Shown here in pieces: positions 14,417-30,278 of a DNA stretch of 53,808 bases. Source of the DNA: a virus; UHGV virus genome UHGV-0110229. One strand, given 5' to 3'. Positions within the stretch are counted from its first letter, which is position 1. Each line of letters begins with the position of its first letter. A program made the translations under genes and the position numbers. The notes under the pieces are model-generated. The model saw only the letters and a list, made by a program, of their open reading frames with translations, was not told the DNA's origin and ran no database searches.

Positions 14417-14653
14417 ATGGTTAAGAGCTTTTTTAACTGGTTGGGGGCGTGGCTTTTGGCTACGCTTTTTGTTTTTTTGGTGTTCAGCGGCGGCATCGTC
14501 ATATTTACGCTGGCTGTGATGTTTGTTACATGGTCAGTACCTGAGTTTAATGACTTGGGATCTATTCTTACCATAGCCCGCGCTTTATTGGCTGTTAGCT
14601 CATTTATTGGTTTTTGCTGGACTGTAGCGCCTGATTGGGGTGATGAATGGTGA
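14417..14653 (+). CDS. Small membrane protein (2 predicted TM helices)
   Basis: 78 aa, two hydrophobic stretches. Confidence 0.35.
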   Translation: MVKSFFNWLGAWLLATLFVFLVFSGGIVIFTLAVMFVTWSVPEFNDLGSILTIARALLAVSSFIGFCWTVAPDWGDEW

Positions 14654-14891
14654 TCCTATGGCTTTGTTTAATATGTCAGAGCCGCAATTTAACGCCGTTA
14701 AAGCTGCCGCCCGCGCCGCGCTTTCTGCCTGCAAAGCGGAGGTAGAGAAAAACGGATACAGCGATAAAGCTACGCGGCTGATATTAGAAAAGCATTATCG
14801 CAAAGTCGCCCCGCTAATCAGCATCGAGCGTTTTGTCTGGCTGGTGGGGTATTTAAACAACAGATGGGGAACTGATCAGGATTATTTCTAA
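14640..14891 (+). CDS. Hypothetical protein
   Basis: 83 aa ORF. Confidence 0.35.
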   Translation: MMNGDPMALFNMSEPQFNAVKAAARAALSACKAEVEKNGYSDKATRLILEKHYRKVAPLISIERFVWLVGYLNNRWGTDQDYF

Positions 14892-14900
14892 GGGGGCGTA

Positions 14901-15440
14901 ATGAAGAATGACTACGGCGGAAGCCATACGCCGAAGGAAATTAAAGACCTATGGCAGACGCCAAAACCAGTTTTTAGAGGAATGGATCGCGAGTTCGAAT
15001 TTGTCGCAGATGTGGCGGCAAACAAGGCAAATGCGCTAGTTCCGCGATATATAACCGAAGAAATGGACACATTGCATTATCCGTGGGGAGCGGTGGCAAT
15101 GCCTGGTGAGTATGTATGGCTTAATCCGCCATATTCTAATCCGGGGCCATTCGTTGATAAAGCTGCGCTTGAACACAGCAGAAACCATATCGGATGCGTA
15201 ATGCTGTTGCCCGCTGATATTTCTGTTAACTGGTTTATGAACGGCGTGGGGACGGCAAACGAATGCAGATTAATCACGCGCGGGCGGCTGGCTTTTATAA
15301 ATGCTGCGACTGGTAAGCCAGTGAGCGGAAACAATAAAGGCAGCTTGTTTTTGATCTGGCATCCACGGTGCAGACATGAATGTATTTTTACACACGTAAC
15401 GCGCAAAGATCTATATGCAAGAGGTGCAGATAATGACTAG
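14901..15440 (+). CDS. Phage Dam-type DNA N6-adenine methyltransferase
   Basis: 179 aa; amino-methylase motif NPPYS; size and layout typical of small phage Dam enzymes. Confidence 0.65.
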   Translation: MKNDYGGSHTPKEIKDLWQTPKPVFRGMDREFEFVADVAANKANALVPRYITEEMDTLHYPWGAVAMPGEYVWLNPPYSNPGPFVDKAALEHSRNHIGCVMLLPADISVNWFMNGVGTANECRLITRGRLAFINAATGKPVSGNNKGSLFLIWHPRCRHECIFTHVTRKDLYARGADND

Positions 15441-15930
15441 TGCAGCAGATTTATTACGACTTGCAGCGGAAACAATTGAGCAAAGAGGGAAACAAAACGG
15501 ATACGACAGAAAACAAGAAAAATCAGCGCCAAAAATAGCCACTATATACAACGCTAAGAAGGGCGCAAATTTAACCCCACTTGATGTATGGGATCTGTTG
15601 ATTTGTCTTAAGGAGGCGCGTTTAGAGGCAATTTTGGCTAATGGTTCTGACCCTACTGATACTTTGGTTGACTTAATCAGCTACAGCGCACTAAAAGCGG
15701 AGCAAATATTAAATGATCGGGAGAATGAGCAAAAGAAAAATCAGTTCACTGCCGCCAATATTAATGATGGAATAATAAATGACGCAGCAATAACAAGCTG
15801 TAAGGGGTTGCCACCTTCAATGCTTAATCCTCAATGTGGTTGTATTTCAACTCGGCTTGATTTGAATTTCAAAAGATCTGAGGCTATTCGCGATAAGAGG
15901 TATGACCCAAATGAAAAAGGTGACAATTGA
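15433..15930 (+). CDS. Hypothetical protein adjacent to methyltransferase
   Basis: 165 aa from ATG at 15433 (GAGGTG RBS), overlapping the methylase stop. Confidence 0.4.
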   Translation: MTSAADLLRLAAETIEQRGKQNGYDRKQEKSAPKIATIYNAKKGANLTPLDVWDLLICLKEARLEAILANGSDPTDTLVDLISYSALKAEQILNDRENEQKKNQFTAANINDGIINDAAITSCKGLPPSMLNPQCGCISTRLDLNFKRSEAIRDKRYDPNEKGDN

Positions 15931-16414
15931 CAGGTTATTGGCCTGCGTTTACGTCGCCGTTTTCGTGATCATCAACCTTATTGTTAACCATTGCGGTCCG
16001 TGGGTAATTCCTATCACCACGGTAGCCGTAGTGTGTGTCAATATGATGATCCGCGACTTTCTGTTATATGACGGCGGCCTGAAATGGTCGGCTACAACAT
16101 GCGCCGCCGCTGGCGCAATCACGGTGCTGATAAATTATGACGCAGGGATGGTGGCAATCGCGTCATTCGTCGCGGTTGTTTCTGGTGCGCTTATATCTGG
16201 CGGCGTTTACCGGGTTTTACCTGGTGATTTCGATTCGAAACGCTGGCCTGCAAATATAGCGTCAGCCATTGGCGATGCGTTGATTTTCCCTACGTTATCG
16301 TTTATGGCATTCATGCCGGAAATATCAGCAATGCAATTCATCTCAAAAATGGCAGCGGTAACGGTGATCACTATCATCATGCGCCGCTATTTCACGTTTG
16401 AGGGCAAAAAATGA
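15902..16414 (+). CDS. Integral membrane protein (4-5 predicted TM helices), function unknown
   Basis: 170 aa, strongly hydrophobic throughout; lies between two methyltransferase-like genes. Confidence 0.45.
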   Translation: MTQMKKVTIDRLLACVYVAVFVIINLIVNHCGPWVIPITTVAVVCVNMMIRDFLLYDGGLKWSATTCAAAGAITVLINYDAGMVAIASFVAVVSGALISGGVYRVLPGDFDSKRWPANIASAIGDALIFPTLSFMAFMPEISAMQFISKMAAVTVITIIMRRYFTFEGKK

Positions 16415-17193
16415 GCAAGGGTAAACACTGGTTAAATAATTGGCTTAGAAGTTGGGTTGTGTGGTCGCTGTACGACGGCAGCGGGTACGCCGTTAAAGAT
16501 TGGGCGGAAGCAGGATATAAGTGCTATTGCTTCAACTATGACGGCGCAAATCACGGCGATTATGAAGGCGTTAAAATCATTCATCCGAATATTGAATACG
16601 TTAACGTGTGGATTGACAGCCATTTCCTGGTAATGTTCTCCCCTGAATTGTCTGTTTATCCAGAGCCTGACATTATCTTGGGTTTTCCTCCATGCGACGA
16701 TCTCGCCGTGTCTGGCGCTCGCTGGTTCGCTGATAAACGGAAAAAAGATCCTGACTTCCAGGTGAAGGCGGCGAATAGCGCAAAACTGGTAGAAAAACTG
16801 GCGGATATGCACAACGTTCCGTGGATGGTGGAAAATCCGGTGGGAGCACTGTCAACGCTATGGCGCAAACCTGATTTTATCTTCAACCCGTGCGCTTACG
16901 GTGGCTACCTGCCTGAAGATGACAAACATCCTGCTTTCCCTGATGTTTACCCGCCGCGAGACGCGTACACGAAGAAAACTTGTATTTGGTGCGGCAACGG
17001 ATTTAAACAGCCGCTTTTTAGACCTGTAGATCTTAACTCTGGTGATAACCCTGGGTGGGCGAAAACCGGAGGAAGGACGAAACGAACAAAGATGATCCGC
17101 TCACTAACGCCGCGTGGCTTTGCCCGTGCTGTATTCCTGGCTAACGACCTGGCCATCAATCGTGCTACGCTCAACCGCGTTTTACCGGACTGA
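16411..17193 (+). CDS. DNA C5-cytosine methyltransferase-like protein with atypical PPCD motif
   Basis: 260 aa; motif I-like LYDGSG, motif IV-like GFPPCDD (Cys kept, Q replaced), motif VI-like VENPVG; short variable region. Confidence 0.45.
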   Translation: MSKGKHWLNNWLRSWVVWSLYDGSGYAVKDWAEAGYKCYCFNYDGANHGDYEGVKIIHPNIEYVNVWIDSHFLVMFSPELSVYPEPDIILGFPPCDDLAVSGARWFADKRKKDPDFQVKAANSAKLVEKLADMHNVPWMVENPVGALSTLWRKPDFIFNPCAYGGYLPEDDKHPAFPDVYPPRDAYTKKTCIWCGNGFKQPLFRPVDLNSGDNPGWAKTGGRTKRTKMIRSLTPRGFARAVFLANDLAINRATLNRVLPD

Positions 17194-18786: not shown

Positions 18787-18965
18787 AAAACGAAATTAAA
18801 GATCTGCAAATAGATATTCAGCGCGATGAGCATGATTTAGAAACGGTCCGACAAATCCAGGCTTTTCATATGCGCGAATTGCTTGCATTGAAAGAGCTTG
18901 AGAGAAAGTTAGTTCAGTCTATTTCTGATCGTAAACACCTTATTGCTCGTTACGGGGGCAAGTAA
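18783..18965 (+). CDS. Hypothetical protein
   Basis: 60 aa ORF. Confidence 0.3.
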   Translation: MKNEIKDLQIDIQRDEHDLETVRQIQAFHMRELLALKELERKLVQSISDRKHLIARYGGK

Positions 18966-19687
18966 TGAATCTGGAATCTATTCTCAAATTCCACTTCCCA
19001 AAATCACCGCGTTTATCAGATGAAAGCCGGGGCACGTCCCCGGATGCACTTAATACTACGGATGCACTAACAGCAGCAGGCATGGCGCAATCGCGCGTAG
19101 AGCTTGGTTATAGCGCTTTTTTAGGGAAGATGGAACTATCACAAGCCGAAAAACATAAGGCCGTAGTTTTGCTTACAGAGCGTTTAAGGACTATGGCAAA
19201 AGATTATGAATACGTTATGGAACTGGACGAGGCCAAACGCAATGATCTTATTATTCTTGTTGCCGTTTTCGCGTTTCGGGATTATTGCCAAAGCGCCGCG
19301 ACGGAAAAAACTTGCCCGGAGTGCGGCGGATATAAATTTACGTTTGACGACTACGGAGAAAAACACCTTTGCAAAAAATGCAAGGGGCATGGGACAGTTC
19401 GCAATCATTGTAAACAATGCAAGGGCCGTGGCGAAGTACCGGATAAAGCAGCCAGTGAAGCGGCGGAAATGCCAGTGTTCAAAACGTGCCAGCATTGCGG
19501 CGGGCGCGGGTACTCGCGTTTCCCTGTAGATCTTGTACGGCAGGCGGTTAATCAGCTTGTTTTTCCGGTAAGCCGATCAACATGGTGGAAAAAGTACCGG
19601 GCTTTCTATGAAGACGCCATTGCTGAATTGTTCAAAGAAGAGGCGCTGGCAGATAACGAAATTAAAAGAGTGACGCGGGGTGAATGA
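18965..19687 (+). CDS. DnaJ-type zinc-finger protein (4x CxxCxGxG); positional candidate for late antiterminator Q
   Basis: 240 aa; four motifs CPECGG, CKKCKGHG, CKQCKGRG, CQHCGGRG; located after ninG/rusA where Q sits in lambdoid phages; function not established. Confidence 0.4.
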   Translation: MNLESILKFHFPKSPRLSDESRGTSPDALNTTDALTAAGMAQSRVELGYSAFLGKMELSQAEKHKAVVLLTERLRTMAKDYEYVMELDEAKRNDLIILVAVFAFRDYCQSAATEKTCPECGGYKFTFDDYGEKHLCKKCKGHGTVRNHCKQCKGRGEVPDKAASEAAEMPVFKTCQHCGGRGYSRFPVDLVRQAVNQLVFPVSRSTWWKKYRAFYEDAIAELFKEEALADNEIKRVTRGE

Positions 19688-19890
19688 TGGATAAGCTGGA
19701 AATAAACGATCAGTTTGCTGTTATCTTGTTCGAAGATAAAACGGGCGGTGCATGGTGTAAGAAAGTCACTGGTGCGGAAGCACGATTAATATTGGGTATG
19801 GCAAGCGCGTTAAATGATGGTGAATTGCCAGCCGTACCAGTTGAGCCAGTACATATTTACGGACGGAATAAAGATAATGAAAATAATTAA
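19684..19890 (+). CDS. Hypothetical protein
   Basis: 68 aa ORF. Confidence 0.3.
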   Translation: MMDKLEINDQFAVILFEDKTGGAWCKKVTGAEARLILGMASALNDGELPAVPVEPVHIYGRNKDNENN

Positions 19891-20224
19891 TATTGGGTGG
19901 CTGTATTGCGAAAACTGCGACGACGATGGTATGGTCGTAAAAACTGAAAAAGGTTGCGGCTTCATGCTGTATCAAGGTGATAAATTCGTTTGTCCTCGCT
20001 GCGGCGGCGGTGGTGAGATAGAAATCGTTAATGATATTGCTACAGCACATAAGCCATCTCGCATTGTCCTTGATGAAAAAATAAAAATTCATCCTGATTT
20101 ATTACAGCAAATTATCGATCACGTATCGGCAGCCGCAATCTATAGCGATAACAATTATCAGCGTGAAATGAACGTCAAACGTGCTATTAAGCAGTATTTC
20201 GAGGTTGACGACAATGAAGCCTAA
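19877..20224 (+). CDS. Hypothetical zinc-ribbon protein
   Basis: ATG 19877; CENC..CPRCGG motifs. Confidence 0.35.
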   Translation: MKIINIGWLYCENCDDDGMVVKTEKGCGFMLYQGDKFVCPRCGGGGEIEIVNDIATAHKPSRIVLDEKIKIHPDLLQQIIDHVSAAAIYSDNNYQREMNVKRAIKQYFEVDDNEA

Positions 20225-28829: not shown

Positions 28830-28907
28830 AATCTGACTCACAATCCACCACAAGTTTTTCTATTTTTCGCGTAGCAACGCGTAAACATGTATTCAGGAGT
28901 AAACATT

Positions 28908-30278
28908 ATGCCATCCAATTTAGAATTGGCGGTTAATGCTGCCTTGTCACAACGTAAGGCGGCCTATGCCCGCTATGCAGCCGCCAACCCATTCACTATG
29001 GGGATAGATGCCAAACGCGATACTGCGTGGAGTGAATACGGATTCAAAGAAGAGATCACGTATGACGACCTGTACAAACTGTACAGACGCGGTGGTATTG
29101 CTCACGGTGCTATTGAGAAAATCATCACGACGTGCTGGCGCACCAAGCCAAAGATGATCGAAGGAACTGAAGACGAGAAAGCGAAAAAGGAAACACCGTG
29201 GGAAAGAGAAATCAAGAAGAAATTTAACAACAGATTTTGGCGCACTGTTGCTGAATGTGATCGCCGCCGCCTCATTGGTCGTTATGCTGGCCTGTTGATT
29301 CATGTAAGAGATAACCAGCCGTGGGATCAGCCAGTGACAAAAGGTGTAGGCATTGCCAAATTTACCCCGGTATGGGCTGGCGCTCTTACACCGAAGGAGT
29401 TCGAAGAAGACCCGAACAGTGAAAACTATGGCCTGCCAACGTGGTGGGAATACAAAGAACGCATTAACAGTAAGACCATTGCCAGAAGAATCCACCCTGA
29501 CCGCATATTCATCTTTGGCGACTATTCTGATGATGTCATCGCTTTCCTTGAACCGTCCTATAACGCCTTTGTGTCACTTGAGAAGGTGGAAGGGGGTAGC
29601 GGTGAATCATTCCTGAAAAACGCCGCCCGCCAGCTTGCTATCTCGTTCGATAAAGAGATTGACTTCCGTTCCCTTGCTGCAACATACGATTGCGACGTTA
29701 CAGAGTTACGCGAAAGATTTAATGAGGCTACTGCTGAAATGAATAAGGGTAATGACGTAATGATGGCGTTACAGGGTGCAACAGTAAGCCCGCTGGTTAC
29801 TGCTGTATCTGACCCGTCATCAACCTATGACGTAAACCTGCAAACCGCCGCCGCTGGTGTTGATATTCCAACCCGCATCCTGGTAGGGAACCAGCAGGGC
29901 GAACGCGCATCAACCGAAGACCTCCGCTACTTCAACAGCCGCTGTATGACCCGCAGGGAGGAAATTGGCGGTGAACTTGAAGATCTGTTCCGCAAGATGG
30001 CAGATCTCCGCCTTATCAGTATGCCAATTGACGTATCAGTGATATGGGACGACCTGAACGCCATGACCAAAGCGGAGCTACTGGAAGCCGCAGACAAGAT
30101 GGCGCAAATCAATCAGGCTTGTTTGGCTACTGGTGAAGAAATATTTAGCGGTGACGAGATCCGCGAGGCTGCCGGATACGATGGCCCTGCCAGTGTAGTT
30201 GAAACGGAAGAGGAAGACGATGATGAAGGTGAAGAAGATAATCAGGCGAATACCTCCAGCCGCGATAATGCCATCTAA
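28908..30278 (+). CDS. Portal protein
   Basis: About 456 aa from ATG 28908 (AGGAG RBS; alternative ATG 28887); position after TerL; acidic C-terminal tail. Confidence 0.6.
   Translation: MPSNLELAVNAALSQRKAAYARYAAANPFTMGIDAKRDTAWSEYGFKEEITYDDLYKLYRRGGIAHGAIEKIITTCWRTKPKMIEGTEDEKAKKETPWEREIKKKFNNRFWRTVAECDRRRLIGRYAGLLIHVRDNQPWDQPVTKGVGIAKFTPVWAGALTPKEFEEDPNSENYGLPTWWEYKERINSKTIARRIHPDRIFIFGDYSDDVIAFLEPSYNAFVSLEKVEGGSGESFLKNAARQLAISFDKEIDFRSLAATYDCDVTELRERFNEATAEMNKGNDVMMALQGATVSPLVTAVSDPSSTYDVNLQTAAAGVDIPTRILVGNQQGERASTEDLRYFNSRCMTRREEIGGELEDLFRKMADLRLISMPIDVSVIWDDLNAMTKAELLEAADKMAQINQACLATGEEIFSGDEIREAAGYDGPASVVETEEEDDDEGEEDNQANTSSRDNAI

Follow-up and report, generated by a model that had tools for sequence, protein, structure and literature searches.

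A probable anti-restriction methylation block with a putative orphan YhhQ/VUT-family transporter in a mEp021-like coliphage

A four-gene block in a mEpimmI phage

The viral genome UHGV-0110229, whose full 53,808-bp sequence is the window analysed here, is a complete genome of a mEp021-like (mEpimmI) temperate coliphage, and at positions 14901 to 17193 it carries four overlapping open reading frames (ORF1 to ORF4) that include two DNA methylase genes and a membrane protein gene between them. These are probably best explained as a known kind of anti-restriction methylation block, made of four translationally coupled neighbour genes of which one encodes an orphan transporter. The block is already present in published mEpimmI genomes, where it is similarly annotated, and ORF1 and ORF4 fall in known families. 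The detail that is new is the assignment of the membrane protein, ORF3, to a remodelled branch of the YhhQ/VUT family that lacks a DpdA partner, which we regard as a modest lead and not, as the evidence stands, as a new kind of system. The four genes are as follows.

ORF1, 14901..15440, + strand: 179 aa, predicted phage Dam-family N6-adenine DNA methyltransferase.
ORF2, 15433..15930, + strand: 165 aa, DUF6378 protein (171 aa if read from an upstream ATG at 15415).
ORF3, 15911..16414, + strand: 167 aa, predicted divergent short VUT/YhhQ-family (COG1738) membrane protein (a start at 15902 would give 170 aa).
ORF4, 16411..17193, + strand: 260 aa, predicted phage Dcm-like C5-cytosine DNA methyltransferase.

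All four are co-directional on the + strand and overlap one another, where a preliminary description made from the sequence alone had placed them. The overlap is 8 nt between ORF1 and ORF2 (from the ATG at 15433) and 20-29 nt between ORF2 and ORF3, while ORF3 and ORF4 share an ATGA, and a GAGG-type ribosome-binding site lies upstream of each gene. For ORF2 the start at 15433 is favoured because 165 aa is the length found in homologs and in public annotation, and for ORF3 the ATG at 15911 is favoured by its better spacing to an AGAGG site and by 167-aa homologs.

Phages of the mEpimmI group are Nus-dependent and non-lambdoid, and they have a high prevalence in the human gut. Across the block region, nucleotide identity to mEp010, mEp554, mEp515, mEp021, mEp044 and mEp013 is 87-94%, with 93% to mEp010, mEp554 and mEp021, and the mEp021 counterparts of ORF1-4 are gp30-gp33 (GenBank MH706966; 92% nucleotide identity). 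The block was found in 35 of 5,426 complete E. coli genomes, and the four genes are conserved in these, in 7 isolated phages and in dozens of metagenomic contigs. When compared with relatives, the ratio of non-synonymous to synonymous substitution rates (dN/dS) is 0.085 for ORF1, 0.29 for ORF2, 0.045 for ORF3 and 0.10 for ORF4 (dS ~0.3), and the adjoining NinG and RusA genes have values of 0.04-0.06. Given this conservation across the group and ratios well below 1, the four ORFs are real genes under purifying selection and not chance reading frames.

In mEpimmI phages a nutR2 site is located directly downstream of the cytosine methylase gene (PMC11893012), a position that makes the block part of a delayed-early rightward operon; a terminator annotated after the mEp021 gene was not reproduced by a simple terminator scan here. 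We therefore picture an operon that would be read through from the rightward promoter early in lytic growth, so that ORF1 would N6-methylate adenine in replicating phage DNA and ORF4 would make 5-methylcytosine (5mC) using Cys95, Glu141 and S-adenosylmethionine. Together, these marks would protect progeny DNA from the restriction enzymes that they block and, as a side effect, ORF4 would be the kind of enzyme that is sensed by retron Ec86. ORF3 would insert in the inner membrane and move a small solute, as a descendant of phage YhhQ-like importers of 7-deazaguanine precursors that are normally encoded beside DpdA. It would most likely still import a purine-like base for host pathways (for example, Tgt and tRNA queuosine) or have changed its substrate, and it would feed no modification of phage DNA.

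The two DNA methylases

ORF1 matches Pfam PF05869 (E 2.4e-51, 174.2 bits against a cut-off of 28.1) and NCBIfam TIGR01712 'phage_N6A_met' (phage N-6-adenine-methyltransferase; 136.5 bits, cut-off 97.05), and its NPPY catalytic motif occupies residues 75-78 (nt 15123-15134), in agreement with the preliminary call of an NPPY-type N6-adenine methylase. These scores, both far above the family cut-offs, identify ORF1 as a predicted member of the Dam family found in T1-like phages. With the Dam-like enzyme of the T1-like phage KarlJaspers it shares 40% identity, and it is the shorter of the two (179 aa versus 233 aa). To judge by the family name, its target would be GATC.

In ORF4, motifs I, IV and VI of C5-cytosine methylases and a short target-recognition region lie at the places claimed for them in the preliminary description. 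Motif I is DGSG at residues 22-25 (nt 16474-16485), within SLYDGSGY at 19-26; motif IV is PPCD at residues 93-96 (nt 16687-16698), with Cys95 as the catalytic residue; and motif VI is ENP at residues 141-143 (nt 16831-16839), with Glu141. A lysine pair, KK188/189, is encoded at nt 16972-16977, and the target-recognition region, from motif VIII to motif X, is short, with DNPGWAKTGG at nt 17044-17073. The protein matches phrog_757 'DNA methyltransferase' (E 7.5e-87) and has more than 7,700 homologs; out of 50,697 phage records, 1,517 contain relatives of it, among them records of T1-like, Dhillonvirus-like, rV5-like and Klebsiella Webervirus phages. An alignment of 23 homologs shows that G23-S24, P93-P94-C95, E141-N142-P143-V144 (ENPV, not ENV), W151-R152 and K188 are invariant, as is a C-terminal RSLTxR motif.

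The link from ORF4 to its enzyme family is drawn through homologs, because direct Pfam, NCBIfam and PDB sequence searches with ORF4 itself returned nothing. Among its close homologs, 10 of 23 match PF00145 (best E 1.3e-6), and the profile of the ORF4 family aligns to DNMT3B at motif I (SLFDGIATG) and motif IV (SPCNDLS), DNMT3B and M.HaeIII being its only Protein Data Bank (PDB) matches (E 0.08-0.24). The AlphaFold2 (AF2) model of ORF4 (predicted local distance difference test, pLDDT, 87; predicted template modelling score, pTM, 0.86) was compared with the PDB by Foldseek, and each of the top 50 matches is a catalytic domain of DNMT3A/3B/3C (best match E 3e-7, with probability 1.00 and a TM score of ~0.5); in DNMT3 enzymes, too, the recognition domain is very small, and they carry a PCN motif. 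The preliminary description had named a lack of relation to methyltransferases, together with Dam-type methylation alone in the phage DNA, as the outcome that would overturn it and had proposed alignment to C5-methylase profiles as a check; the homolog and fold comparisons place ORF4 among the methyltransferases.

The same description took PPCD, in place of a canonical PCQ, as a sign of altered chemistry, a proposal that the family comparison does not sustain. The usual motif IV of this family is PPCT, not PCQ, and PPCD is limited to mEpimmI alleles, where D, N or H comes next after PPCD. Directly behind the catalytic cysteine, ORF4 has D, other family members have T, DNMT3 has N and the classical enzymes have Q. 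More directly, ORF4 is 62% identical over 232 aa (E 5e-107) to bas06_0055 of KarlJaspers, a 'Dcm-like C5 cytosine methyltransferase' encoded by 711 bp, and phage K42, whose genome is 95.4% identical to that of KarlJaspers/Bas06, carries a 711-bp dcm gene (bioRxiv 10.1101/2023.08.16.553469). The K42 Dcm protein, nearly identical to the KarlJaspers one, was shown by mass spectrometry coupled to liquid chromatography (LC-MS) to place 5mC on the multicopy single-stranded DNA (msDNA) of retron Ec86, at a CCWGG site on which the signal depended, it triggers retron Ec86, and its C82A+E128A+K175A+K176A quadruple mutant is inactive (bioRxiv 10.1101/2023.08.16.553469). In an alignment made via KarlJaspers, these four positions correspond to C95, E141, K188 and K189 of ORF4, all of them conserved, and the recognition loop is almost the same in ORF4 and the KarlJaspers enzyme, which have DNPGWAKTGG in common. 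On the strength of the 62% identity to a family for which LC-MS has shown 5mC and of the conservation of the mutated residues, we read ORF4 as a predicted ordinary Dcm-like 5mC methylase and not as an enzyme of exotic chemistry, and its target is most likely CCWGG.

Likeness to the K42/KarlJaspers enzymes extends beyond the catalytic Cys, the ENP Glu and the lysine pair to the minimal DNMT3-like fold without a large target-recognition domain, and to genome context, since in both cases an orphan enzyme without a cognate nuclease is accompanied in the same genome by a Dam-family methylase. They differ in motif IV (PPCT versus PPCD), in an extra 13-15 aa at the N-terminus and ~15 aa at the C-terminus of ORF4, and in that ORF4 belongs to a temperate phage and stands beside a VUT gene, unlike the enzymes of these Drexlerviridae. 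T1-like phages commonly carry a Dam enzyme together with a Dcm-like one. In addition, ORF4 is 57% identical to gp52 of Pantoea phage AAS23, a cytosine methyltransferase that shares its genome with a Dam-superfamily methylase, gp34, and AAS23 DNA is reported to be Dam- and Dcm-methylated by restriction analysis (PMC8004638). AAS23, by contrast, is a virulent siphovirus in which the gp52 and gp34 genes are far apart, with no VUT or DUF6378 gene between them.

Both candidate target sites are over-represented in the window and not avoided, with 261 GATC observed against 206 expected and 129 CCWGG observed against 82 expected, which is consistent with a phage that methylates both site types itself. 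Several points weigh against this account of the methylases. ORF4 itself has no Pfam match (PF00145 included), NCBIfam match or PDB sequence match at E up to 0.1-10, and its invariant Asn42 occupies the position of the acidic motif II residue found in many C5 methylases. Moreover, the putative target sites of ORF1 and ORF4 are extrapolated from relatives at 40-62% identity.

The membrane protein and the DpdA connection

ORF3 has 5-6 hydrophobic segments (the GenBank note for mEp021 gives 6), so the preliminary description was correct in calling it polytopic and somewhat low in its count of 4-5 transmembrane helices. It matches phrog_4899 (E 2e-46), and a word-indexed homolog search recovered 11 close relatives where an exhaustive phmmer search recovered 153. 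PF02592 Vut_1, the YhhQ family, is matched by 75 of 78 phmmer relatives and by 10 of 10 longer ones. In profile-profile comparison with hhalign, a family profile that contains ORF3 aligned to gp41 of phage CAjan, a 159-aa 'putative preQ0 transporter', with a probability of 97.7% (E 1.7e-12), and to E. coli YhhQ with a probability of 93.6% (E 2e-7). Through these intermediate relatives and profile alignments, ORF3 is assigned to the VUT/YhhQ family (PF02592, COG1738), to which E. coli YhhQ also belongs, as a divergent predicted member.

This assignment has evidence against it as well as for it. A direct search with ORF3 found no Pfam match at E up to 0.1, PF02592 included, and direct NCBIfam and PDB sequence searches found nothing; in addition, a profile built from no more than the ORF3 clade gives a marginal alignment with E. 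coli YhhQ (E 0.09). Beyond family membership, it is doubtful that ORF3 retains preQ0/preQ1 transport, because it lacks two Asp residues that are conserved from YhhQ to the phage relatives, and it may have a role other than transport.

ORF3 keeps the core residues N25, G32, R51, D52, S88, N118, D125 and K149, and it lacks the family residues D47, H55, D99, S117, S126, G135, G152, G153 and W156, its replacements including N47, S99, M135, A152/V153 and I156. It groups in a neighbour-joining tree with P0132, P0134/L164 (L164 being an rV5-like 136-kb phage), L167 (a contig of a Succinivibrio metagenome-assembled genome) and P0140. The VUTs of three 130-137-kb phages (L189-L191) were outside the tree but carry the same residue signature, which comprises D47N, H55 to a hydrophobic residue, D99S/A, G135M/L/S, G152-G153 to A/S/T-V/I and W156 to I/L/Y/V. 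In all, the signature occurs in 9 representatives from at least 4 genomic contexts. Among 135 other family members, conservation at these positions is 82-97%, and E. coli YhhQ likewise has D47 and D99.

The relatives of ORF3 point to its ancestry. Viral contigs that carry a short VUT gene akin to ORF3 were surveyed, and in 73-74 of 80 such loci a DpdA-like gene is on the same strand and within 300 bp of the VUT gene, usually directly upstream; of the remaining loci, 3 have a TGT+DUF6884 protein and the last 3 lie at contig ends. The hidden Markov model (HMM) used for DpdA was seeded on CAjan DpdA plus 39 relatives. Since the DpdA-like alignment has no PDB sequence match, the identity of these proteins as probable DpdA homologs is tied to the published genetics of CAjan gp35 and to Pfam TGT and Prokaryotic Genome Annotation Pipeline (PGAP) names in some loci. 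In CAjan, deletion of DpdA abolishes preQ0 in DNA, and deletion of yhhQ has no effect on DNA modification (PMC7544227).

Within these environmental contigs (L084-L163), the DpdA-like gene that precedes the VUT gene encodes ~245 aa (for example, L129 6378-7453 and L086 6270-9056), and in many of them a gene for a ~530-aa ResIII/SNF2-type helicase comes directly after the VUT gene. With no preQ0 synthesis genes in the fetched flanks, this arrangement suggests a compact DpdA-transporter(-helicase) module. The T1-like coliphages Opt-719 and LHE71 have a VUT gene followed by a DpdA gene. In LHE71 (L166, 1175-1908 and 4004-5307), a Dcm-like gene lies ~2 kb from this pair and is split into two overlapping ORFs, by either a frameshift or a sequencing error.

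The phage under study has the transporter component of a DpdA-based modification system and neither DpdA nor the genes for preQ0 synthesis. When all six frames of the 53.8-kb genome were scanned, the DpdA HMM gave no match better than E 0.65, phmmer searches of the same six frames with the CAjan FolE, QueC, QueD and QueE proteins found nothing better than E 0.07, and the PGAP annotation of a sibling prophage contains no DpdA, FolE or QueC/D/E. A hidden DpdA or Que gene in this phage is ruled out by these scans. Similarly, relatives from the ORF3 clade with fetched context have no DpdA within 7-8 kb, and no context for P0132 was found in the viral and genome collections. The clade's neighbours elsewhere include an N6_N4 methylase 0.8 kb away (L164) and, in another context, a DNA ligase and a MazG-like protein. 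We considered a rule that VUTs of the ORF3 clade travel with DNA methylases, for example as importers of a compound related to a methyl donor; it fits this phage and L164, not L189-L191 or L167, and it was dropped.

Compared with CAjan gp41 and other phage VUTs, ORF3 is of the same family, similar size (~160-170 aa) and multi-pass layout, and shares N25, G32, R51, D52, N118, D125 and K149. It differs from the DpdA-linked members in that its phage has no DpdA or preQ0 synthesis genes, in the replacement of D47, H55, D99, G135, G152/G153 and W156, in the absence of a direct Pfam match, and in having methylases as neighbours instead of Que/Dpd genes. The sister group of the ORF3 clade is formed by the DpdA-linked VUTs of T1-like phages, which keep D47, G135 and G152. 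As the simplest reading of these comparisons, the ORF3 lineage would have lost its DpdA partner, changed its binding site and been kept for another use.

What that use may be is the point on which explanations diverge. One possibility, to which we give a fairly low probability, is that ORF3 was repurposed after the loss of DpdA, either to carry another solute or to act as a membrane effector that has nothing to do with deazaguanines, for example in superinfection exclusion or membrane perturbation. Fixed substitutions at polar or aromatic positions that are otherwise conserved go together with the loss of DpdA, whereas D47, G135 and G152 persist in the sister T1-like VUTs, which still have DpdA; the dN/dS of 0.045 shows that the new state is maintained, and the neighbours of the clade vary, with methylases in two contexts and a DNA ligase and MazG-like protein in another. 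However, nothing points positively to one new substrate or effect in particular, and the retention of all of the core residues N25, G32, R51, D52, N118, D125 and K149 fits a working transporter of a similar kind.

It is somewhat more doubtful that ORF3 still imports preQ0/preQ1, or queuine-like bases, and thereby raises host tRNA queuosine (Q) during lytic growth to tune translation, with no modification of DNA involved. Such a role finds support in the homology of ORF3, both to YhhQ/VUT proteins in general and to the preQ0-transporter homolog of CAjan. Phage YhhQ homologs are not correlated with DpdA groups, and it has been suggested that tRNA Q might be raised by phages in which Q-pathway genes occur without DpdA (Hutinet et al. 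2019, PMC6884629). The strong purifying selection on ORF3 would fit as well, with Tgt supplied by the host. Against it, E. coli already has YhhQ and makes preQ0 de novo, and the replacement of D47, D99, H55, W156 and the GG motif in the ORF3 clade suggests a remodelled binding site. Furthermore, the lack of effect of the CAjan yhhQ deletion on modification (PMC7544227) indicates that even the ancestral role is subtle.

A third proposal, that ORF3 is a functionless, decaying remnant of a former DpdA-VUT module, is extremely improbable. DpdA is indeed absent, and some contigs carry ORF3 in a truncated or fused form (P0127-P0131; L012), but ORF3 is the most constrained gene of the block, with the lowest dN/dS of the four (19 comparisons, dS 0.34), and it retains 94-99% protein identity over ~40 loci while the neighbouring ORF2 drops to 60%. 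Finally, we think it decidedly unlikely that the DpdA-less, remodelled VUT clade of mEpimmI, rV5-like and other large phages represents an unrecognised phage function, such as the import of a nucleobase or cofactor other than preQ0. Such a function could serve host tRNA modification, nucleotide pools or DNA modification that is not based on DpdA, and in its strongest version the last of these could use the PPCD-type ORF4 as its enzyme.

Gene neighbours and biological significance

The adjacency of ORF3 and ORF4 led the preliminary description to suggest that a membrane protein sandwiched between two methylases serves some other base modification. One part of this idea has a basis, since ORF3 appears to descend from transporters that accompany DpdA; the rest finds no support, as the phage has no DpdA or preQ0 gene, ORF3 and ORF4 have no constant link outside the group, and natural variants uncouple them. 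In its full form the proposal is that ORF3 imports a precursor and the PPCD-type ORF4 performs a non-methyl transfer or some altered chemistry, as a new base-modification pathway. The ATGA overlap, the adjacency of the two genes in nearly all mEpimmI genomes, the limitation of PPCD to this phage group and the ancestry of ORF3 in a DNA hypermodification system can be cited for it. We consider it very improbable nonetheless, because ORF4 is 62% identical to a family that makes plain 5mC, with the mutated residues conserved and the recognition loop almost identical, and because natural enzymes differ in the residue that follows the catalytic Cys (Q, N, T).

Genomic distribution also argues against a shared pathway. 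There are 60 loci with ORF4 homologs that have no ORF3, 5 of which have Dam and DUF6378 genes nearby in another order, and the only ORF4-family gene among the 80 VUT loci is on the opposite strand (L098). Within the group, three variants separate the two genes. In L188 (8510-9085), in-frame loss of ORF4 residues ~52-162 removed motifs IV and VI and left ORF3 intact. In L012 (4663-5007), a deletion fused the Dam N-terminus to the ORF3 C-terminus, with loss of intact ORF1-3 and retention of ORF4; the fusion protein (P0129) was seen in 7 contigs. In L185 (8504-9722), a mEpimmI-like metagenomic contig, a 175-aa ORF of HNH + AP2-like (homing-endonuclease) type is inserted directly after the VUT gene, and in place of the usual Dcm-like gene stands an allele of 47% identity that has FPDCT as motif IV. 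Since natural variants keep ORF3 or ORF4 without the other, the four genes are neighbours that can be lost independently and not one demonstrated pathway. In most group members the translation of ORF4 is tightly coupled to that of ORF3, a point that simple neighbourhood does not explain, and it counts against our preferred explanation.

ORF2, the remaining member of the block, matches Pfam PF19905 (DUF6378) over residues 13-96 (E 9.4e-8, 32.7 bits, cut-off 27.1) as well as phrog_474/9871, and all 119 of 119 listed full-length homologs carry PF19905. Its N-terminal ~95 aa are nearly invariant and form a conserved helical domain, while the C-terminal ~70 aa are mosaic. A profile search of the PDB found nothing meaningful for ORF2, the literature holds only passing mentions of DUF6378, and the AF2 model (pLDDT 50) was not used for structure search. 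The idea that ORF2 is MazG-like was dropped when hhalign found no similarity to the MazG-like neighbour of a related VUT gene, the PDB profile search being empty as well.

Other features of the window may be recorded here. Directly upstream of the block, at 14417-14891, are two small ORFs, one for a 78-aa hydrophobic protein and one for an 83-aa homolog of Ipe ('inducer of pleiotropic effects'); the latter is 96% identical to mEp021 Ipe and conserved across the group, and the former is far more variable (30-77% identity). A candidate Q-like antiterminator of 240 aa, with repeated CxxC/CxxCxG zinc-finger-like motifs, is encoded at 18965-19687, and the ORF at 19814-20224 has a faint DnaJ_CXXCXGXG match (E 0.006). 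At 28887-30278, a 463-aa ORF has a Pfam match to Phage_portal_3 (E 2e-20); PGAP gave the corresponding protein of prophage NZ_CP023377 the name 'anti-CBASS protein Acb1 family protein', which seems a doubtful automatic assignment.

The nearest published counterpart is the gp30-gp33 block of mEp021, annotated as a putative N6-adenine methyltransferase, a hypothetical protein, a putative membrane protein with 6 transmembrane segments and a putative cytosine methyltransferase. This public annotation makes no link from the membrane protein to VUT/YhhQ or from the cytosine methylase to the Dcm enzymes that trigger a retron.

These comparisons turn an odd-looking cytosine methylase into a routine and widespread phage Dcm-like enzyme, found in ~3% of sequenced phage genomes, with relatives known both for DNA protection and for triggering retron Ec86. 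Consequently, mEpimmI prophages, which are common in the gut, should be considered carriers of a retron trigger as well as of Dam/Dcm-type self-methylation. If ORF3 still moves queuosine precursors, a prevalent gut coliphage would be tied to the tRNA-queuosine economy of its host; if its substrate has changed, ORF3 would represent a new accessory function that evolved from the toolkit for deazaguanine modification of DNA.

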